The position numbers and the translations under genes are program-made. DNA of 64,000 bases from Schmidtea polychroa (lineage: Eukaryota), in contig CM097886.1 in NCBI GenBank assembly GCA_044892525.1, positions 173,650,312-173,714,311 of the forward strand, given 5' to 3'. Numbering within the stretch: position 1 is the first letter of the stretch; every line of letters starts with the position of its first letter. Below the pieces are notes generated by a model. The model did not search any database. It had not been told where the DNA came from and saw nothing but the letters and a program-made list of their open reading frames with translations. Shown one piece after another: positions 4,655-24,235 of this stretch.

Positions 4655-4683
4655 TTTATCCACACTAAGTAACCAACAATTCT

Positions 4684-4950
4684 AGTGTCTCGCTTAATGA
4701 AAGTGCTAAGGAGTTTCATGATCTTGAATAATGTATCTTCTGTCTGTCATTCACCTAATTTAAAAACTTTACTTCTAAGTTTTAGAGGATCAAATCCAGA
4801 GAATTCTAGATAGTGAAATGTTTCGGTAAAATCAAAGTTTTCCATTTCTTTAAAAAGCTCGCTAAAATCATGAAAGGATAATGTCATGGTCTTTTGTTTT
4901 ATTTTACTTCTCGCACGGCTGTGTTACTTTCTGAAACTTTGAAGGATGAA
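4684..4950. repeat. About 270-bp local duplication (second copy about 9987-10240)
   Basis: Near-identical text GTGTCTCGCTTAATGAAA...GGATCAAATCCAGAGAATTCTAGAT...CTTCTCGCACGG at both positions. Confidence 0.9.
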
Positions 4951-7545: not shown

Positions 7546-7659
7546 ATGTTATTCATGAAACAAAGAGAGAACAAACTTACTCATGTTCAGTTTCGTTGCA
7601 TGCCCTAAAAGTATAATAATAAATTTAAAAATAAATATAATATATACTTGTTTTGTGCT

Positions 7660-7790
7660 TTTTTGGGTTGGAAAATACATAAAATTTCCCACATATTGGG
7701 CATTTTACCTTTATCGAAATTGCTAATGACGTTGCTGGGTCCTGGATTACAGCAGCTGCACTTGATGCACCCAATAATTGATTTTATAAC
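7660..7790 (-). pseudogene. Cys-rich (zinc-binding-like) domain fragment, copy 1 of 3
   Basis: Translates to GCIKCSCCNPGPSN...KCPICGKFY across a frame break; homologous to 8880-9075 and 16790-16965. Confidence 0.6.
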
Positions 7791-8689: not shown

Positions 8690-9075
8690 TTAAATTATCT
8701 ACGCTTTCTTGAAGATTCTCTATCATATGTTGGATAAATCTGGAGCTGATTCAACATTTGCGGGTGGTAAATCTTCATTAGGGAATTGACCATTTCCAGA
8801 TGATGGTAAATCTTGAGCATGACCTAAAAATATAATAATAAATTTTTTAAAAAAATATATTTACTTATTTTGTGCCTCCTTAGGCCGGAAAATGAGTAAA
8901 ATTTCCCACATTTTGGGCATTTCATTTTCAATTTCTGAAATTGCTTCAGTTGTTCTTCATGGTCAAAAGTGCAGTTGCTTGGTCCTGGTGGACAGCAGCT
9001 GCACTTGATTCAACCATGTGTTTTGGCATTTACAATTGAACGCAACGTTGCAAATATTATTCATTTTTTAAAAAA
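8690..9075 (-). pseudogene. Cys-rich domain fragment, copy 2, with a downstream coiled-coil exon
   Basis: HG*IKCSCCPPGPSNCTFDHEEQLKQFQKLKMKCPKCGKFYSF, then after a TTTTAG acceptor GHAQDLPSSGNGQFP...IENLQESVDNLKESIEKRLTSLEK ending at a GTAATT donor; stop and frameshift present. Confidence 0.6.
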
Positions 9076-9310
9076 TCTGAAATAAATTGTAATTTAAAAT
9101 TTCTAAATTTAAACAATTCTAAACTCCTCTATGGCACTGGTTTAATTAATTTTAATCGATAAGGGAGTAGTAGTGTTTTAGCCTCTGTAAGACTATTAAT
9201 ATTTAAAATAAATTTTATTATTATATTTTTAATATTTTGTATTACTATTTTTACTATAGAAGTGCAAAGTAAATTTTTTAATGATAATAATAAAATTAAA
9301 ATTTTAATTT

Positions 9311-9900
9311 TTAATTAAAAAAATAAATTAAAAATAAAATCACTTGCAAATTTACACAAATTAGGTGAAATTCTTCGCCTGAAAATTGGGAGAGACCCAG
9401 ATACGACCAATGGCGGAAATCATAAGTGGTAATTGTAATATAATAAAACAAAAAAAACAATAAGACCTCAAATTGAATCTCATTTGCTACCTGATTTAAA
9501 TTTCTTGCTGCCTGGAATAGTCGATGGTCCTCTTGTAATTGATTTACGAGCTGACTAACCACTTTGTTGATACATCGGGTAATATAAAGCAAATTCGCTG
9601 GCACTTAATAAACTCTTTAAAATGGCTCTGCGCCTGCTCTAGTAAAATAAACTTGACTCATTAGTTATTTTCCAGTGATTTCTAATTTTGACCTTGTCAG
9701 TCTTCGATCCATTGATTAATGAGTCAAGCTTATGGCAGAATTCTAGGTGATGCATATGAAAGTCTGTCTGCTCTTTGGACATAAGTCTTGCTGCAGCTGT
9801 AAGATGTAAACACGGGGGCGTCATTTTATCAAATGTGCTCAAATCTTGACCCAGATTTTGACTGCAACTTTGAATAATGGTTTAGGACAGGTGATCCATA
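9311..9900 (-). pseudogene. Broken ORF segments of an unidentified helical protein
   Basis: Protein-like stretches (HHLEFCHKLDSLING.., KVVSQLVNQLQEDHRLFQAARNLNQVANEIQFE) interrupted by stops and frameshifts; lies upstream of the 8690-9075 fragment on the same strand. Confidence 0.35.
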
Positions 9901-10219
9901 CTCAATACCGTTCTTTACTCTGTATTTTTACTCTGTATTCTTTCCAATTTTCCTTGTTTGTCTTACTTGAAATATTCTTGATTCAAGTGTCTCGCTTAAT
10001 GAAAATGCTAAGGAGTTTCATGATCTTGAATAATGTTTCTTTTGTCTGTCATTCACCTAATTTAAAAACTTTACTTCTAAGTTTTAGAGGATCAAATCCA
10101 GAGAATTCTAGATCGTGAAATGTTTCGGTAAAATCAAAGTTTTCCATTTCTTTAAAAAGCTCGCTTAAATCATGAAAGGATAATGTCATGGTGTTTTATG
10201 TTTAAGGTTTAATTTTACT

Positions 10220-11140
10220 TCTCGCACGGGTGTGGGTGTGCTACTTTGATATATGGAAAAAGTAGTTCTTGTTAAAATTGGTATTGAATTGGTATTGGTA
10301 CAGGGAATTTTCAAAGAGAAAGTGGTTTAGAATTATGAAAAAAGTTTTAAAGTGGTTTTAATTTGTCTTAGTTATTAGTTATTATTTAAAACAAACAAAA
10401 AGATAAACAAAGTTTCGATTCTTAGCCCAAAAATAATAATTATACATCATCTATAATTACGAACCATTCAAAGGCTGGCTGCTAGAATATATTAATATTG
10501 TTACATTTATCGAAACGCAAATCTTGAAATATCTCATAACAAAAAATGAACCTACCAATTTCCTATTTAAATTCGAATTGCTCATAATAATAATTACTAT
10601 AAAATTATGGTTTCTTGGTAGCAGCATAAATTAAATGTTAATCAACAATTATTCTTATTAGGGTTTTTTAATGTCGTTAACGGTAAACGGAAGCTTATGC
10701 TCTTTTATTTAAATCGACTCGTTAAGGACCAGCGTTTGCTGATAGAATTTTAAAGTTCTTATTTTTAGCCTTTTTAAAAAAAAAACTTTCTGTTTTTTTA
10801 TTAACACAATTTTTGCAAACAAATAAAAAATGCAAATATTAAAATAATTAAAAATGGGTTGAAAACTGTAATAACAAAGTGAGATCAATTTTTTGGAAGG
10901 TATCGGAAAGTACATAAAAATGTTAATAAAACTGAATAAAACTGCAAATAAAAATTTTAATAAAAATGTAAGTAAAGATGAATAGCACAGAACATATCAA
11001 AAATATAAATAAAAATCTATATAAAAATCTAAACAAAAATCTAAACAAAAATCTAAATAACAATATAAATAACAATGTGAATAGCACAGAACATATAAAA
11101 AATGTAAATAATAAACGACCTGCTGTTAGTCTTGGGTCTT
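10220..11140. repeat. About 0.9-kb local segmental duplication (second copy about 12840-13790)
   Basis: Both start CTCGCACGGGTGTGGGTGTGCTACTTT and run in parallel through ACGACCTGCTGTTAGTCTTGG; includes AT-rich internal repeats (AAAAATCTAAAC, AATAGCACAGAACATAT). Confidence 0.9.
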
Positions 11141-11500
11141 GTGTTCTATCTAAAGTTTTAGATAGTGATTTAGCCGTGTTTTCTGGAAATGCAGCTACTA
11201 ACCTACCTAATGTAACTGTCTCAGGCTTAGCTCCACGTTCTAAGGAGTTCTTCACTCCGTACTTCTCAATGAGACTTGCGTACTCCCTCCACTTTTCTTT
11301 GGCAATTTTTTTGGCAATCGTTCTGATTCTAGTACAATTATTGGCCAATCATTGAAGGCTGCAAGGAAACTCCTCTTTTTGGTATACTAAAATGAAAGCC
11401 CTTTACCCCAATAGAGACCTCATTGAGAGTCCTGGGAACAAGGGGGTCCTAAGTAGACGCACTTCATACCAGTATATTTCTTCACCGCGATTTTTAGAAA
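11115..11500 (-). pseudogene. N: Endogenous viral element: Phenuiviridae (tenui/phlebovirus-like) nucleoprotein fragment
   Basis: RTIAKKIAKEKWREYASLIEKYGVKNSLERGAKPETVTLGRLVAAFP matches the phenuivirus N core pattern (KK..K.G....L+.+YG+.........+TL[GS]R+...FP); a frameshifted YTG-YE motif upstream (about 11460-11476) matches the N-terminal Y.G[YF]D motif. Confidence 0.65.
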
Positions 11501-11526
11501 AGATAGACCTTAACTCTTTCAACTTT

Positions 11527-11884
11527 ATCACACGTAGACACCGAAATTATTTAGCAAAGCGTAAAATACTCTAAAGTGAGTAATTACTATTAAATAATCA
11601 GTATTTTCTTTTATATTAAGTATTTTTTTGACTATTTTCAAAAGATTCGAATAATACTATCTATAAGTTTTGGGTTCTATTTAAAAAAGAGATTAATGCA
11701 AGATATAGTAAATATTTTACTATGAATATTAATATCCAATATTTCCAATTATAAAATATTATTCATTGTTTTTTGTCGTGGTTCTTAAAAAATTATAGAA
11801 ATATTTTACCTTTAAATAGTTTATCACATATAGAAACCGACATTATTTAGCAAAGCGTTAAATACTCCGAAGTGAGTAATATCA
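11527..11884. repeat. AT-rich module M (copies about 11527-11884, 14680-15035, 15185-15363, 20589-20799, 20881-21090)
   Basis: Recurrent text AAAAAGAGATTAATGCAAGATATAG...TTTTGTCGTGGTTCTT...GAAATTATTTAGCAAAGCGT.AAATACTCCGAAGTGAGTAAT. Confidence 0.9.
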
Positions 11885-11888
11885 TATT

Positions 11889-12748
11889 GTTCCTCCGACA
11901 TAATGCCCCTGTTGGGCTATCAGTTTGTTCCTCTTGGAGTTCATCCATGATTTCCTCGCCTATGCCTTCCTCAGGTTTCCCTGATTCCCGCAAAGGCTCC
12001 ACCTATTTGATGAACGTTTCCTTCTTTAGCTGTCCACTAATGGATTCGGCTGTTCGACCCTGACCGTGGACCCTTGATAGTTCCTTCGGATCCAGACCAT
12101 TCACCACTACTTCTCTCACTAGAATCTGAATTTCCTCTTCCTGCCATCTCGATTTCTTTACGACCCTTTCACCCAGCTCTTTTTCTATTAGAACATCCGT
12201 CTTATCCCCGTGAGCACTCTTCTGGTGCACGACTCTGCCAATTTTTGTTTTGAAAACCTTCTCACAAAAATGGCATTTATACATCTCGACCTCGCCCGTA
12301 AAATCCCGACCGCACCATTCACTGATAAATCGTTATTTATAGTGTTGTTTGTCATGGTGTTTTTAGGCGACGACGGTTTTGTGGACCGAAGTGCCTGTAG
12401 ATAGCTTCCCAGAAGCGCTTGCTGAGGTTGGACATTACCCAGCTTAACCTTCTTATCTGTCCTGACCGCCCGGGATAGGAGTTGCCTCCTTTTGGCTCTA
12501 TAGGTTTCCCTATAGTTACCATGAGCTTCCAGCTGTTCGAAAAGAATTACGTTTTGTTGCCATTCTTAGGAGAATGGGAAACGAGAGTAACCACGAGAAG
12601 GTAGTAAATCTTTTCTTTCCGCTCGCGCAGGAGATATCTCCTACCAGGGACGCTAACCTGCAGCACCTAGGCCATCCCTTACAGGGCGGACTGATCAAGG
12701 GCTTTGGGACCAGATTACCATAACTCAAATAGAAGAGAGTCATAGTTA
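11889..12748 (-). mobile_element. R2 non-LTR retrotransposon 5' fragment (5' UTR, C2H2 zinc finger, Myb domain), copy 1
   Basis: YKCHFCEKVFKTKIGRVVHQKSAH (C2H2) followed by RWQEEEIQIL...RTAESISGQLKK (Myb-like), the R2 N-terminal architecture; near-identical to 21092-21905. Confidence 0.88.
12539..12748 (-). ncRNA. HDV-like self-cleaving ribozyme of the R2 5' UTR (P1 5' strand missing), with 28S target remnant
   Basis: Minus strand: P2 GAAAAGAUUUAC/GUAAUUCUUUUC (11 of 12 pairs), P3-L3 ACC-UUCUCGU-GGU, P1 3' strand UACUCUC, GU, P4 CCAUUCU-CCUA-AGAAUGG, then CAAC; upstream TAACTATGACTCTCTT (12733-12748) equals the 28S sequence just 5' of the R2 site. J4/2 is longer than canonical. Confidence 0.72.
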
Positions 12749-14091
12749 TCAAAAACACAATTAGCCGCATACGCTACCAGACGCATACGCATCAAAAGTT
12801 TAACAAACGAACAAACTTATAAATCAAATAAAAGAAAATTCTCGCACGGGTGTGGGTGTGCTACTTTCTGAAACTTTGAAGGAATTTAGTCTCAAAAGTT
12901 TGATATATGGAAAAAGTAGTTCTTGTTAAAATTGGTATTGAATAAAAGTACAGGGAATTTTCAAAGAGAAAGTGGTTTAGAATTATGAAAAAAGTTTTAG
13001 TGGTTTTAATGTCTTAGTTATTAGTTATTATTATTTAAAACAAACTAAAAGTTAAACAAAGTTTCGATTCTTAGCCCAAAAATAATAATTATACATCATC
13101 TATAATTACTAACCATTCAAAGGCTGGCTGCTTGAATCTATTAATATTGTTACATTTATCGAAACGCAAATCTTGAAATATCTCATAACAAAAAATGAAC
13201 TTACCAATTTCCTATTTAAATTCGAATTGCTCATAATAATAATTACTATAAAATTATGGTTTCTTGGTAGCAGCATAAATTAAATGTTAATCAATAATTA
13301 TTCTTATTAGGGTTTCTAATGTCGTTAACGGTAGACTTAAGCTTATACTCTTTTATTTAAATCGACTCGTTAAGGACCAGGGTGTGCTGATAGAATTTTG
13401 GTAGTTCTTATTTTTAGCCATTTTTAAAAAAAATACTTTCCGTTTTTTCATTAACAATTTTTCCAGACAAATAAAAAATGCAAATATTAAAATAATTAAA
13501 AATGGGTTGAAAACTGTAATAACAAAGTGAGATCAATTTTTTGGAAGGTATCGGAAAGTACATAAAAATGTTAATAAAACTGAATAAAACTGCAAATAAA
13601 AATTTTAATAAAAATGTAAGTAAAGATATGAATAGCACAGAACATATCAAAAATATAAATAAAAATCTATATAAAAATCTAAATTAAAATGTAAATTAAA
13701 ATGTGAATAGCACAGAACATATCAAAAATGTAAATAAAAAACGACCTGCTGTTAGTCTTGGTTCTTGTGTTCCATCTAAAGTTATAATAAAAAAAATAAG
13801 AATTTTATTGCTAGTCGCAATAGGTAGAATCTGTTTTCACGCTTTTATTTCCTGTAGTACTTGACCTAAATAAAATTAGTTTACTGGTGTAATTGGCTAT
13901 TTAGTCGGCGAGTCTTGATATAGTGGTTACACTTGGGATCCACACTATACTGAGGGTTAAGTGAAACTGAATGACCATTAGTTAGACAACCCTAGTTTTA
14001 TCCGATACGTGATGGAAGAGGAGCATATTCACCAGACCTATTATATGTAGTTCTTGTTAAAATTGGTATTGAATAAAATTACACGGAGTTT

Positions 14092-14694
14092 TCAAATAGA
14101 AAGTTGTTTAGATAAAAAATTTTTAGAATGGGGGAGGAGCATATTCTCCAGACCAATAATATCCTCACTTTTGGTAATTCTTTTAAAGTCGTCTTTTATT
14201 GAATATATTCCTTTTTTCCTTTTCGGCATAGGAATTTCCTCCAATTGTTTGTGAGTTAGGTGGACATAAGGAACTGCTAAAATTGGCATGTTTTTGTTTA
14301 TTGTACCAGTCTCCAATAACTTGGTTGACAGTCTTGGGAATTGTTGCATTGCTGTCCACTGACAATCTCGAACTAGTGCTAGGATTTGCTCCGGTGCCAT
14401 CTTTTCTTGTTGCTAAATTCTAAAATTTTTTAAATATGAAAATACTAAAATATTGTACTTGCTCATTATTTCTTTTGCAGTCCTTATGTCCTGGTTGAAT
14501 AGGACTGGTAAAGTCGTTTGCGTGTATGATTCCGTCACCTCCTGGTAATCGGTGATCTCTAATGGGCGGGTCATCATCACTGCACCTAATATTTGAGCTT
14601 CTATCATCGAGTTGATTCCGATATTGATTTTCTCTTCCAACTCGAATCTTTTTGGGATGACCTTAACTAGTTCAAGTTTATCACATATAGACAC
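14092..14694 (-). pseudogene. About 200-codon unidentified ORF with one in-frame stop
   Basis: ORF-track segments 14413-14694 and 14092-14400 are in the same frame, joined by TAG-CAA-CAA-GAA-AAG; protein-like composition, no family recognised. Confidence 0.45.
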
Positions 14695-15408
14695 CGAAAT
14701 TATTTAGCAAAGCGTAAAATACTCCAACGTGAGTAATTACTATTAAATAATCAGTATTTTCTTTTATATTAAATATTTTTTGACTATTTTCAAAAGATTC
14801 GAATAATACTATATAAATTTTTGGGTTCTCTTTAAAAAAGAGATTAATGCAAGATATAGTAAATATTTTACTATTAATAGTAATATCCAATATTTCCAAT
14901 TATAAAATATTATTCATTGTTTTTTGTCGTGGTTCTTTAAAAATTATAGAAATATTTTATCTGTAAATAGTTTATCACATATAGACACCGAAATTATTTA
15001 GCAAAGCGTAAAATACTCCGAAGTGAGTAATATCAGATAGTTCCACTTGTTGGAAATTCTTAGTTAATTGGTTCCATAAATGACCACTTGCACTGTTTAC
15101 ACGAAGCCATTGAGTTGATTTTAGACTATAGTGGGGGGATTTCTTACTATCAAATAATTAATTAATAATACGAATTAATAATAAGAGATTATTGCAAGAT
15201 ATAGTAAATATTTTACTATGAATAGTAATATCCAATATTTCCAATTATAAAATATTATTCATTTTTTGTCGTGGTTCTTTAAAAATTATAGAAATATTTT
15301 ACCTGTAAATAGTTTATCACACATAGATACCGAAATTATTTAGCAAAGCGTAAAATACTCCGAAATTCTTAGTTAATTGGTTCCATAAATGACCACTAGC
15401 ACTGTTTA

Positions 15409-15534
15409 CACGAAACCATTGAGTTGATTTTAGACTATAGTGGGGGGATTTCTTACTATTAAATAATTTATTAATAATACGAATTATCCCCACATCCTCC
15501 CACTATAGTCTGGTATCAACTCAATGGCTTCGTG
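15409..15534. repeat. Imperfect 36-bp inverted repeat (MITE-like termini); left arm also at 15100-15135
   Basis: CACGAA(A/G)CCATTGAGTTGAT..AGACTATAGTGGG versus CCCACTATAGTCT..ATCAACTCAATGGCTTCGTG. Confidence 0.75.
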
Positions 15535-15654
15535 AAAAAGCCCCAAGCATTTTTTTCTATAATAACAATAAGTATAATATATATAATATATATAAATAAT
15601 AATAAAGTGTAATGTAATGTTAATGTTGCATTAACACATTACACTATGGTATAT

Positions 15655-16789: not shown

Positions 16790-16965
16790 GAATATGACCA
16801 TTTTCAGGTGGTACATATTGGGCATTATATCTTCAATTTTTGGAATTGATTAAGTTGTTCTTCATGGTCAAAGTGCAGAGTCTTGGTCCCGTTGGACCGC
16901 AGCTGCACTTGAAGCAACCATGGCTCTTTAAATTTTCAATTGAATTCATAATGTTGCATATATGG
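16790..16965 (-). pseudogene. Cys-rich domain fragment, copy 3
   Basis: HICNI....LKSHGCFKCSCGPTGPRLCT(fs)DHEEQLNQFQKLK..CPIC, homologous to copies at 7660 and 8880. Confidence 0.6.
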
Positions 16966-17239
16966 TTCATTGATAATAAAACAATTAACATTGGAGTTTG
17001 TACATATTCAGTAGGCATGTGACCATTTGCAACTTGTTAAGGATAGATAACCTAAACAAAATACCTTTAATCATAATATACGCTGTGCATTGCAAAGGTC
17101 TTAGTTAATTTGAAAATTAAAAAGTTCAAATCAACATGAATATTTTATTAATCTAATAACAGTTATAAATTTCAGCGATTATTAATATTAATATAACGTC
17201 AATATTACTTGACTGAAATTTATAAAAGCACTAAAATAA

Positions 17240-18494: not shown

Positions 18495-21400
18495 CAATAG
18501 GACTTAGTGTTATGTGCGGTCGACATTGCATGAAAAGATATTACCCCTCGCTTTGACGCAGCCAATAAATGTCTTACCATCAAGAAGCCTCGTCCCATCC
18601 TTTATCCAGTTATGAATAAAAGGAACTTCATTCGATCCGTTCAAGCCATAACCTTCATTACTCAAGTACAGCCAATGCTTCATCGCTTCATAGTAGTCGT
18701 TTTTGGTCTTCATGTCTTAACTTTTATCGGTTTCCGGCACTTTTTCAGTCTTTTTAAGATCGTGGGGGTGCTGCAGAACAACAATCTGATCTCCCGAATC
18801 TACCAAGCTTTCCAGTCGTTCTACGATCCCGTATTGGATTTCTGCTCTAATCGATGGTATCCCTGGACCGCCGTCCCCACACTTACTGTTGATGAACTCC
18901 GCCGTAGTGTCATTTGGCAGCTTCAACCATTCCCGTACAAACCTTCTTGTCCTCTTATCCAGTTCTCGCAATTCCCCTAACCTTGACTCCCCTAATATCG
19001 CGCGATGCATGATACTAGGGATCAAGAAACTACGAAGTATCTCCAGGCGCTGTTGCGGCTAAAGGGTGCTTTGGTAATTTCAAGCAACTTCTCAACATAG
19101 GAAGTACCAATATTCGCTTTAACCTTCCCATGTGAGTTAAAATACACACCAAGGTATTTATAAGTTGAATCGGGGTCGGAGCTCATATGAGGCACGTTCC
19201 CATCATTGGTAGTCAGTACATCTGACGTAACAAACCATTATGGCCATCCCTCTGTGCCGTTATTGATTTGGGTCCAGGCCGTTCCTTTTGAGCTCTGTTA
19301 GGGTTACAGTCAGTAATAGTTGCAACCCTTCTTTACTCTCAGCACATAAGACGATATCGTCCGCATAAGCCAGAATAGGTACTTTTCTACCTCCACGTCG
19401 GTACTCCATACCAGTTTTCTCCACTTCACCAATTGCCTGCTCAACAATTTTATTAAATAGTATTGGTGAGAGTGTTTCACTCCACGTTTCATCATTGCGG
19501 TTACTGTCCCGATCGTCGTACACGTGTTAGTGTAGCAATTCCTGATATAGTTTACAAGAACCTTCGGATATCTCTGAATCTTTGCACCTCTAATTATCGA
19601 CTCATGGTTCACAGAGTCAAATGCTTTCCTCATGTCTATAAACGCCAAAGATATAAGGCGTTTTTGGCTCCTCGCATCGTATAACAAAGCCTCTAGGAGG
19701 CAAATTTTTTCCAGCGTTCCGTCACATTTCTTGAAACCCTTCTGAGCATTTGAAGCTGGGGCCCACTTCGCGACCCGACTCGCCAAAATCTTGTGAAAAC
19801 CACGTGTCAACACAGAGCTAATGGTGATCGGTTTAAAATCTCCCCCTTCCCTGGGATCCTTAATTTTAGGAATTAGAGACGTGCGACTATTCTTGAGATA
19901 ATCCGGGATGTGACCTGATTTCAGCATGATATTGAACAACTTGCATATCATTCGCGCCGGAATTTTCGTTACTTGAGCAACACTTAGGCCGTCCGGTCCT
20001 TTGCCGTATCCAGCTCCATCTTTTTGAAGCTATAGGTAACACTCCCCATCTCTATCGGAGCAATAATTTCCGTGATTTCCGCTCCTGCCACTACTGTACG
20101 GTCATCTTTTTCACTCGGTGTCTCAAACACCTTCCAATATACATCCATACCTTCGATTATTTGAACTTGAGAGTCACACTCTCCATTTTCCATCCAATAC
20201 CCGAATGCGATCTTATATAGATTCTGCAGCTCAGCATATTGCATTTTCCGCAACTCCTTTTTTGTCGCTCTCTTAACAACTTCGAAATCCTTTCCACCTT
20301 TTTTCTTTTTGTTCGCCTTGTCAGTTTTTCTGCGAATTCGTCCAGTAAAACCACCCGCCCATTTTGATCCGAATCGATAGCCTTATCCAACAGCTCTTCA
20401 TACCAGTTTTTCCCAGGAACCTTTCCTTGACACTCTAGGGATCTCAGATATTGTTCTATATCCGGTTTCGATGTTTCGTCTCTAATCCAGAACATTCCGT
20501 GATCTTGTTCCTCCGACATAATGCCCCCTGTTGGGCTATCAGTTATTTCCTCTTGGAGTTCATCCATGGTTTCCTCGCCTATACCTTCTGGTATTTAAAA
20601 AAGAGATTAATGCAAGATATAGTATATATTTTACTATTAATAGTAATAAACAATATTTCCAATTATAAAATATTATTTATTTTTTGTCGTGGTTCTTTAA
20701 AACTTATAGAAATATTTTATCTGTAAATAGTTTATCACATATAGAAACCGAAATTATTTAGCAAAGCGTTAAATACTCCGAAGTGAGTAATATCAGATAG
20801 TTCCTCCGACATAATGCCCCTGTTGGGCTATCAGTTTGTTCCTCTTGGAGTTCATCCATGGTTTCCTCGCCTATGCCTTCTGGTATTTAAAAAAGAGATT
20901 AATGCAAGATATAGTAAATATTTTACTATGAATAGTAATATCCAATATTTCCAATTATAAAATATTATTCATTTTTTGTCGTGGTTCTTTAAAAATTATA
21001 GAAATATTTTACCTGTAAATAGTTTATCACATATAGAAACCGAAATTATTTAGCAAAGCGTTAAATATTCCGAAGTGAGTAATATCAGATAGTTCCTCCG
21101 ACATAATGCCCCTTTTGGGCTATCAGTTTGTTCATCCATGGTTTCCTCGCCTATGCCTTCCTCAGGTTTTTCTGATTCCCGCAATGACTCCACCAATTTG
21201 ATGAACGTTTCCTTCTTTAGCTGTCCACTAATGGATTCGGCTTTGATAGTACCTTCGGATCCAGACCATTCACCACTACTTCTCTCACTAGAATCTGAAT
21301 TTCCTCTTCCTGCCATCTCGATTTCTTTACGACCCTTTCACCCAGCTCTTTTTCTATTAGAGCATCCGTCTTATCCCTGTGAGCACTCTTCTGGTGCATG

Positions 21401-21905
21401 CCTATGCCAATTTTTGTTTTGAAAAATTGCATTTATACATCTCGACCTCGCCCGTAAAATCCCGACCGCACCATTCACTGATAAATCGTTATTTATAGCG
21501 TTGTTTGTCATGGTATTTTTGGCGACGACGGTTTTGTGGACCGAAGTGCCTGTAGATAGCTTCCCAGAAGCGCTTGCTGAGGTTGGACATTCCCCAGCTT
21601 AACCTTCTTATCGATCTGTCCTGACCGCCCGGGATAGGAGTTGCCTCCTTTTGGCTCTATAGGTTTCCCTACAGTTACCCTGAGCTTCCAGCTGTTCAAA
21701 AAGAATTATGTTTTGTTGCCATTCTTAGAAGAATGGGGAACGAGAGTAACCACGAGAAGGTAGTAAATCTTTTCTTTCCGCTCGAGCAGGAGATATCTCC
21801 TACCAGGGACGCTAGCCTGCAACACCTCGGTCATCCCTTACAGGACGGACTGATCAAGGGCTTTGGGATCAGATTACCATAACTCAAATAGAAGAGTCAT
21901 AGTTA
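18495..21905 (-). mobile_element. R2 non-LTR retrotransposon, 3'-truncated and frameshifted, copy 2 (5' UTR, ZF/Myb, reverse transcriptase, thumb/linker; no RLE endonuclease seen)
   Basis: LIPK..DP....DFKPITISSVLTRGFHKILA.R, AQKGF, FIDMRKAFDSVNH, LSPILFN, LAYADD (19356-19367), YKYLGV, GGPGIPSI, and the R2-typical DG..L....FI..VKARGN; interrupted at 20589-21090 by module M. Confidence 0.92.
21698..21905 (-). ncRNA. Second copy of the R2 HDV-like ribozyme with 28S remnant
   Basis: Same P2/P3/L3/P1-3'/P4 arrangement (P4 loop UCUA instead of CCUA); 28S remnant TAACTATGACTCTT at 21892-21905 (2-nt deletion relative to copy 1). Confidence 0.68.
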
Positions 21906-22370
21906 TCAAAATCACAATTAGCCGCATACGCTACCAGACGCATACGCATCAAAAGTTTAACAAACGAACAAACTAATAAATCAAATAACAGAAAATTTGC
22001 CTATGCCGATATAACAATAACGTCATAATTGTTGACTCAAGTTCTCAATGTCCCATCGTAAATATAGTAGATTTGGCTCGTTGGGGAGTGTCTTCCGCGG
22101 TCGTACCCGTTTTCTGGGAGTGCTTATTGTTGCTCCTTGGCTCTCGTTCGACCTGCCCCATGGATGGTCTAAACTGCGCTAGTTCAGATGAAATATGAAA
22201 TATCTTATGAAAAAGTGTTGGTTATAGAAAACATATCTGTGGTGGTTAGTCATTTTTAATAATATAATTAATAATCCGAACAATATTCAAAAATTATTAT
22301 ATTCTTTAAATTACAAAACTTTTTAAATTCCAAAATTTACAGGTAAAAGTAAAACAAATTGATTTAATTA

Positions 22371-22769: not shown

Positions 22770-24073
22770 ATGGTTATTATCACGGCAATCGACGAGTAGT
22801 CAATTAGCACTTAAAAAATCGGATCCTAATATGGGGATAATAACCTCTGCCATATAAAACTTCCACTCAAATAATTGGTCGGACAAAAATGGTAAAGAGA
22901 AAGCAATTGTTTTCGAACCCAACGTCTCGACAACACTGCTGTTTGCGGCCTTCAAATAAATATCGACAGTGTTGAGGTTTGGAAGGTACTATTTAAGTAA
23001 GATCGACAAGCTGGTACCAGTGTCGACAAGGAATTTTAGTTTGTTGGAAGGAGACGACAATATATTAAAAGCGTTTGATTCTGCTTCTATTTTAAAATAA
23101 ATCTAATTATAAGTTTTTTTGATTGTTTGCTTTTGCATTTTTTTTGCATTGTGTAATTGGAGCAGCCTTCGAGTTTTTTAAGGCTTTATCTCCAAACCTG
23201 TCATGGTATATACACTTGTCAAGTATCTGACAGGATGGTGCCTTGTCTCGCCAATTGCAACCTAGATGGCAGAACCGTGCCTTGTTACGAAACTTAAAAT
23301 GGAAACGGCACAGGTTCCTGGTTGCAGGAGAAGGTGAACATTGACGTTTATTGTCTATCGTCATTTGTCCGCCTGGTGGACATACTATTCTCAAGCTGAT
23401 GCGTTTAGTGATGCGTTTATGTAATAGCACAAAGTAAGGCTTCTTAGGTCGAAGGTTTCAAAGAAGAAGAAGAAGATAAAATTTCTGTGTTGCTACTTAA
23501 CTGCACAGAGCAAGTTGGTTATTAATTTTGTCGGCCATCTTTAGTAGCTCTACCACATCTGCGGTTGAAGAAAGCGCTAAAATTTATTGTGCGTGTGGCG
23601 GTAAAGCAGACATAGTTTTTGATCCGTAGCAGCCTCAGGATGTATTTGAGTTAGTTCTGCCATAGCATGTTGCAAAAACTGTAATGGTTTTCTGCTACCC
23701 AAAGTATTTAGTGAAGACGGCAGCTGTAGGCTCTTTAAAAATATCGAGGATTGCCGTACGCAATTCTTCATAAGGATTTTTGACGATAGTAAGTGAAGTA
23801 CGAAGGATCACGGACGAAAATTTACTTAATATCGTCCGGGGAATCAACGGCAAAATGCGACAGTATTTGTCTCGTGAACTGGTTACCTCGATTCCATCGA
23901 GTGCTAGTTCGGTAGAAATCAGCCAAGTAAGTGACATAAATACATTGATCGCTGATTGTTGGACTTACGTTTATGTTTTGTCTGTTTGTGATTGCTGCTT
24001 GAGTCATTCTCCGAATCGGAAGAACCGCCAGAAAGTGGCAACAAACATTGAATGAGGCTCTATTCTCTGTCAC
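22770..24073 (-). mobile_element. gag: Ty3/Gypsy LTR retrotransposon gag plus aspartic protease pseudogene fragment
   Basis: gag: ..DGI..SRDKY..IL..IP..IL..FS.VI......NPYEELRTAIL, GSRKPLQFL, LCRFHFKFRNKARFCHLGCNW; protease: KFLVDTGTSLSIL (23016-23033), LKAANSSVVETLG, FYMAEVIIPILGSDFL..N*LLVD; no RT or integrase follows. Confidence 0.88.
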
Positions 24074-24235
24074 TCCGTAGTTGCCCAGGGAACGACTGTT
24101 GGAACGAATGGTGCCGTTGTACGACTAATAACTTCATCAAATAATATCTTTTAAAATGAACTACAAAAATTTTATTGCCAATGCATTCTGATTCCTCGAC
24201 TAAATAGAGTATTGTTTTTCAAAGACATAATTCAA

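Follow-up and report, generated by a model that had tools for sequence, protein, structure and literature searches.

The locus studied here raises the question of whether a piece of a bunyavirus nucleoprotein (N) gene lies in the genome of the flatworm Schmidtea polychroa and, if so, how viral RNA came to be written into host DNA. The window, by which we mean the whole stretch of 64,000 nucleotides analysed (GCA_044892525.1, contig CM097886.1, positions 173,650,312 to 173,714,311, forward strand), had been predicted to contain a fossil of a phenuivirus-like N gene. Both peptides quoted in this original prediction, SLIEKYGVKNSL (11276-11241) and TVTLGRLVAAFP (11219-11184), were found on the minus strand in one and the same stop-free frame (10923-11348). 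When the stop-free frames of at least 42 aa in positions 1-24600 were scanned against Pfam, this frame matched PF05733 (Tenui_N) with 29 bits at a cut-off of 25 (E = 1e-6). The match joined frame residues 10-62 (11321-11163) to profile positions 69-120 of 224 and was the sole viral match among the 231 frames (108 plus, 123 minus). The original prediction was to be dropped if phenuivirus N profiles gave no significant match or if some host or transposon protein scored higher; neither was the case, as the only other family matched by the frame was HVO_B0008_C, which stayed under its own cut-off at E = 0.01. The core of the element, hereafter EVE1, occupies 11163..11333 on the minus strand, as defined by the Tenui_N match and the protein alignment described below, and appears to be a stop-free middle part of a Phenuiviridae-like N gene. 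EVE1 is truncated at both ends and embedded in repeat-rich host DNA. A direct word-index protein search with EVE1 gave no relatives (0 of 268 word-sharing candidates), the PDB contained no relative (the best match was a designed repeat protein, E = 0.016), and neither a usable match in the Atlas nor any match in the phage collection was obtained.

A search profile built from EVE1 aligned with the N-terminal part of a second N-like element, EVE2, identified a single relative among 1.84 billion representatives. This protein, P0002, is 261 aa long, was matched best over residues 72-126 (E = 7e-4), and originates from a contig of 1418 nt in an ENA assembly. P0002 itself matched Tenui_N in Pfam with E = 1.8e-10, its best solved relative was the nucleocapsid 4j4w (E = 0.0016), and no further relatives were found among 1106 candidates. 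Within the window, EVE1 aligned with P0002 residues 74-125 at 11333-11181 (52 aa, 40% identity, E = 5.6e-7), and the EVE1 core scored 98 against P0002 with a shuffle maximum of 38 (n = 12); here and in the other alignment and motif comparisons below, the shuffle controls preserved base composition and nothing else. As P0002 was itself retrieved with a profile of these fragments, the scores that it reaches with EVE1 and with the N-terminal part of EVE2 do not count as independent evidence, and the independent support consists of the Pfam matches and the match of the EVE2 C-terminal part. P0002 resembles the two elements in the order of the conserved blocks and in identity (40% to the EVE1 core and 27%, or 46/172, to EVE2), but it is intact and they are not. 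The single-sequence structure model of P0002 reached a pLDDT of 38 and another prediction in this analysis a pLDDT of 39, both too poor for searching. Candidate relatives from IMG/VR and metagenome scans were dropped as chance matches, six of them (L001-L006) after re-scoring at 27-33 bits over 29-77 aa and another (L007) as a 13-residue match.

EVE2 (9618..10189, minus strand) reads as a nearly full-length but broken N-like gene with an ATG at 10189, and it is collinear with residues 26-214 of P0002. Its three collinear blocks gave 46/172 identities and a score of 99 (shuffle maximum 39, n = 40), and the C-terminal block alone, which lies outside the search profile, scored 60 (shuffle maximum 38, n = 60). 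The frame is broken near 9928 and 9831, with a 13-bp tandem repeat at the first of these breaks, and stops were located near 10049, 9983, and 9639. Taken alone, EVE2 had no Pfam match, its link to PF05733 going through P0002; a word-index search with its N-terminal part yielded 0 related proteins from 68 candidates, and no relative was present in the PDB. A third element, EVE3 (4679..4923, minus strand, ATG at 4887), goes back to a duplication, at the DNA level, of the first third of EVE2 (its 5′ part), with 92.9% identity to 9981-10234 and one stop in common. Over 69 codons, EVE2 and EVE3 showed 0 synonymous and 6 non-synonymous differences; the differences are few, and there is no sign of protein-level selection. 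These two N-like copies were absent from the original prediction.

The best common stretch of EVE1 and EVE2 comprised 36/57 nt, whereas local duplicates in the window are 92-94% identical; for this reason, EVE1 and EVE2 are regarded as separate captures from different viruses. EVE2 represents, judging from its alignment, the N gene of a different virus of the same lineage as that of EVE1, about 1 kb away. Phenuivirus segment ends are complementary and start with ACACA. This word was found near the EVE2 and EVE3 ends, at 9354 (plus) and 4924 (minus), where it may mark the termini of viral segments, and at neither end of EVE1; with 35 occurrences in 24.5 kb when both strands are counted, the 5-mer is too common and was set aside as a marker.

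The Tenui_N score above the cut-off, the relative P0002, and the nearby EVE2 bear out the proposed phenuivirus-like fossil. Although the EVE1 match is short (53 aa) and exceeds the Pfam cut-off by 4 bits, we conclude that EVE1 is very probably an endogenised fragment of a Phenuiviridae-like N gene, a 345-bp internal piece that constitutes a non-retroviral endogenous viral element. Membership in the Phenuiviridae is decided by placement in a phylogeny of the L polymerase, and the Pfam scan of frames of at least 42 aa found no L gene in 1-24600. On the evidence of its sequence, EVE1 is a member of PF05733, and its source virus may belong to Phenuiviridae proper or to an unclassified sister lineage.

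The viral pieces lie among other elements. Positions 24487-64000 are occupied by a tandem array of 14 full 2806-bp units and a partial one, 99.9-100% identical, which was either amplified very recently or produced by the assembly; the unit contains overlapping frames of 119 aa (plus) and 132 aa (minus) that had no Pfam match. A short cysteine-rich frame occurs three times on the minus strand (7598-7773, 8817-9065, and 16813-16971; 71-80% identity), one copy showing a weak C2H2 zinc-finger match (E = 3e-4). On the plus strand, a GC-rich frame of 255 codons with a Met start (46-813) had no Pfam match at E 0.001 and may be the first of the reading frames of a mobile element. The minus-strand region 22800-24124, which showed a weak DUF7041 match (E = 0.0018) and, by eye, a protease-like motif near 23030, is likely a Gypsy-type remnant.

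When the strands were compared, Pfam matches with E ≤ 0.001 were obtained for 1 of the 108 plus-strand frames and 7 of the 123 minus-strand frames. The Pfam-supported elements were piggyBac on the plus strand and a zinc finger, Tenui_N, a Tc1-like HTH, hAT, mariner, and the R2 reverse transcriptase (RT) on the minus strand. This bias is a weak hint, drawn from the orientation of the matches, at a one-strand piRNA cluster. In such a cluster, fragments of viruses and transposons would be trapped in antisense orientation relative to a plus-strand precursor, and the N fossils would be retained as antiviral guides. Besides the six minus-strand elements against one, the minus-strand orientation of EVE2 and of the weak DUF7041 match and the two independent N captures within 1 kb speak for this possibility. 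However, the strict count is not significant (6/7, p = 0.125; 7/8 with EVE2, p = 0.07; 8/9 with DUF7041 as well, p = 0.039), and one of the six, the zinc finger, may be a piece of a host gene. In addition, planarian type A piRNA clusters are described, in the available part of the source, as antisense to transposons and LTR-rich (bioRxiv 10.64898/2026.01.28.702291), whereas the remnants here are mostly DNA transposons and R2. We therefore regard a piRNA cluster as possible and lean against it.

The extent of the viral insert was examined by self-comparison of the window. A unique insert at about 11161-11505, with a GC content of 0.41, was found between two repeats, X and Y, with a GC content of 0.23. 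Repeat X, which is AT-rich and has no recognised gene, has its first copy at 10219..11160 and its second at 12839-13786; in blastn, 10245-11160 and 12899-13786 aligned over 923 columns with 91.8% identity. The first copy of repeat Y (11506..11893) is 94% identical to a second copy at 14659-15044, and partial copies lie at 15180-15364, 20592-20804, and 20884-21096. The insert is bordered by a 6-bp direct repeat, AGATAG, whose left copy (11160..11165) lies at the blastn-defined X end and whose right copy (11501..11506) follows directly, on the minus strand, after the motif TTAAGGT (11513-11507), which corresponds to the core of the site that R2 cuts in 28S. The AGATAG repeat is a possible target-site duplication or microhomology; among random junction pairs, such a repeat was found in 79 of 5000 within 1 bp and in 266 of 5000 within 3 bp. 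The X edge, the end of the Pfam match, and the 6-bp repeat together shift the boundaries from the 11115..11500 given originally to about 11161-11505. Positions 11115-11160 are probably flank and not virus, because the Tenui_N match stops at 11163. Likewise, the partial re-duplication reported at 13741-13780 is a real match, but it probably concerns flanking DNA, namely the last ~50 bp of the X repeat.

A different division of these sequences would count 11111-11160 as viral and have the whole Y-EVE1-X unit duplicated, with the viral middle of the second copy largely lost, down to a 50-bp tail at 13737-13786. The EVE1 frame is indeed open through this tail, and the GC content of the tail is 0.36, compared with an X mean of 0.23, a level reached by 4 of 82 overlapping 50-bp windows of X. 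A single capture followed by duplication and replacement would also be simpler than two insertions at one site. We nevertheless consider a viral tail rather unlikely: the Tenui_N match ends at 11163, the 6-bp repeat puts the edge at 11160, and the tail scored 29 against P0002 (shuffle maximum 33, n = 100), in a non-collinear part of that protein.

The self-comparison further showed that the second X and Y copies enclose a composite middle (13787..14658, minus strand) that differs from EVE1. It contains a minus-strand frame of about 175 codons with one stop (14658-14132), located behind the second Y copy at a junction of the EVE1 type. This frame had no match in Pfam or the PDB and no convincing match in IMG/VR, the best Atlas value being 0.85; its interpretations as a third viral gene or as a spliced host gene, with an AT-rich stretch around the stop, were considered and found unsupported. 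At 20502-21160 and 14835-15486, part of Y is also enclosed by stretches of 85-130 bp of the surrounding sequence that are repeated directly, and 15096-15174 forms an inverted repeat with 15450-15538 (89 columns, 74% identity), the only inverted match listed in 1-26500.

The upstream part of EVE1 (11334..11505, minus strand), delimited by its GC content and uniqueness, has stops in all three frames and no other copy within the window. Its GC content of 0.407 is close to that of the core (0.422) and compares with 0.23 in the flanks, and these 172 bp are probably a decayed N-terminal coding part, which would make them viral in origin. A frame-break-aware alignment of the 172 bp with P0002 scored 21, with a shuffle mean of 22.7 (n = 100), the anchored score was 0, and no significant alignment with EVE2 was obtained. 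The frameshifted YTG-YE reported upstream of the core is present in letters, with YTG at 11476-11468 on the minus strand and YE in the next frame, but these alignment scores lend it no support. YTG lies 137 nt upstream of the aligned EVE1 block, about 11 codons farther out than the motif of P0002, and a loose motif of this type arose in 48 of 3000 shuffles. The N-terminal Y/F-x-G-F/Y-D/N motif is present in EVE2 and EVE3, where it aligns with P0002, whereas EVE1 has a loose, unaligned form. The homology of YTG/YE in EVE1 to the N motif may be real.

The question of how the viral sequence was copied had been linked to a neighbouring R2 element. The element at 11894..12840 (minus strand) is indeed the 5′ end of an R2 and begins 389 bp away from the insert (11894 versus 11505), in agreement with the distance of about 400 bp given before. 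It was recognised by Pfam and by a word of the 28S target: it contains one C2H2 finger (zf-C2H2, E = 0.0011) and a Myb domain (E = 0.0035), both weak and under their cut-offs, a perfect 28S-derived 16-mer at 12733-12748 (0.05 expected by chance; target sequence from the available part of PMC13000458), and no RT. A longer, broken copy of R2 extends from approximately 18510 to 21997 on the minus strand, with RT matches (RVT_1, E = 2.6e-10 and 1e-9) at 19263-20029 and a 28S-like 16-mer with 2 mismatches at 21890-21905; it is interrupted by a 292-bp tandem unit carrying part of Y (20507-21133, inside the R2 frame). The 5′ fragment together with its Y flank is 91.7% identical to 20884-21997, and since this match includes the non-R2 Y flank, the fragment must have come by local DNA duplication. 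Its closeness to EVE1 is for that reason uninformative on the copier, and this neighbouring piece, which has no RT, lends no support to the proposal that its RT copied the virus. At 12722-12750 (minus strand), the 28S 16-mer of the R2 5′ end forms a hairpin by pairing with the bases that follow it (z = -2.0 for 12560-12760), which would suit an R2 5′ ribozyme; the R2 5′ end had no match in Rfam. The R2 copies here resemble the R2/R2NS non-LTR retrotransposons described in the available part of PMC5035012 in having one C2H2 finger, Myb, an RT (in the second copy here), a 28S-derived 5′ stretch, and a position outside the rDNA; they differ in that a viral piece was not seen as cargo or flank of R2. 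According to the same part of that source, R2 is reported from animals only.

A more specific proposal is that the R2 family, though not this fragment, integrated EVE1 by nicking a relaxed 28S-like TTAAGGT in Y and priming its RT on viral RNA. The motif lies 1 bp from the 5′ junction of the insert in the R2-type orientation, it occurs 4 times in the window, two of these at the paired Y junctions, and the chance of finding it within 3 bp of a fixed junction is about 8e-4. The 6-bp repeat lies exactly at both ends of the insert, the second X/Y copy has a different middle with breakpoints within 1-2 bp, and the window holds two R2 copies and no rRNA gene (0 Rfam matches). R2 families outside the 28S gene are also known in flatworms (PMC5035012, available part). 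On the other hand, the motif was spotted post hoc, and the two Y junctions are duplicates of one another. The R2 cut site in 28S is given as AAGG/TAGC in the available parts of PMC7650587 and PMC13000458, and TAGC is missing downstream of TTAAGGT here. The 29 bases farther upstream match 28S at 10 positions, near chance by eye, and no preference for TTAAGG is apparent in the flanks published for R2NS-1_SMed, in the part of PMC5035012 consulted (S1 Fig). Neither R2 copy in the window sits at a Y junction, and the nearby one is the DNA-duplicated piece without RT. Neither a poly(A) tract nor an R2 3′ end adjoins the insert, whose own 3′ end passes from coding sequence through the 6-bp repeat into X, and the second middle is a composite that lacks a clean repeat. 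Integration of EVE1 by R2 is thus no more than a lead and rather unlikely, and an integrase-type insertion was set aside, as the insert has no LTR ends. The R2 proposal is in any case a specific version of viral capture and no alternative to a viral origin. That the EVE1 match arose by chance, or that the piece stems from some host or transposon protein carrying a basic helix, is hardly credible: the match is short and several searches gave no direct match, but the curated cut-off was exceeded, no rival Pfam family reached its own cut-off, and a collinear N-like gene lies 1 kb off with a C-terminal part that matches independently.

Negative-strand RNA viruses are not known to have a DNA stage. 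Under the preferred reading of viral capture, viral RNA would have been copied to DNA in the germ line by the RT of a host retroelement, twice at this locus, and the EVE1 copy would have been joined in at a nick or break, leaving the 6-bp repeat. Later local DNA duplications, apparently of similar age given that all are 92-94% identical, reshuffled the locus; the R2 5′ fragment, EVE3, and the second copies of X and Y are their products. The viral pieces are dead as protein genes, with stops, frame breaks, and truncation. If they have any role, they would most likely be templates for antisense small RNAs made from a plus-strand transcript, which we think somewhat doubtful. Sampled words of 9300-15100 were found at 79-83% in 4 of the 15 listed sequencing runs, all from one study, which may be the assembly's own source, and at 23-25% in 2 runs of a second study, shares that were taken neither as presence nor as absence. 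No RNA runs with words of this region were listed.

Phenuiviridae-like N fossils are a kind already known from arthropods. In the available parts of the sources, nucleocapsid EVEs of this type are described from ticks and other arthropods (PMC10675110; PMC4384744), and they resemble the present elements as broken N pieces that lie among transposons in an animal genome; EVE1 and EVE2 differ in being far from phlebovirus N, with no direct match in the PDB. In the open literature, whose coverage was incomplete, we found no description of EVEs from bunyavirus N genes in the genome of a flatworm, nor of EVEs, target-site duplications, and R2 in combination. Flatworm bunya-like viruses related to Phenuiviridae are described as not endogenous, and several are reported to be vertically transmitted, in the parts of PMC9241645 and bioRxiv 10.1101/803247 that were available. 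These viruses are a plausible source lineage, and vertical transmission favours germline capture, but they are known, in those parts, mostly by their polymerase, and their link to the EVEs is putative.

The most far-reaching reading of the locus joins these strands: an R2-family element of a free-living flatworm, relaxed in its 28S specificity, would repeatedly write foreign RNA, including bunyavirus N RNA, into the TTAAGGT of a repeat within a one-strand piRNA cluster. We hold this to be very improbable. If true, it would provide a reusable, site-directed archive of infection in an animal that is not an arthropod, in which the N genes of two flatworm bunyaviruses, of a group known mostly by polymerase, would be preserved. 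Owing to the junction motif, the capture of viral RNA by R2 can be tested from the genome alone, and the locus allows antiviral memory to be tested in planarian piRNAs. To the kind of fossil known from arthropods, the locus contributes two captures from a virus lineage that has hardly been sampled and had a single relative among the representatives searched. Since the host is a flatworm, the N sequences may serve as queries in the search for the small segments still missing from the bunya-like viruses of flatworms.
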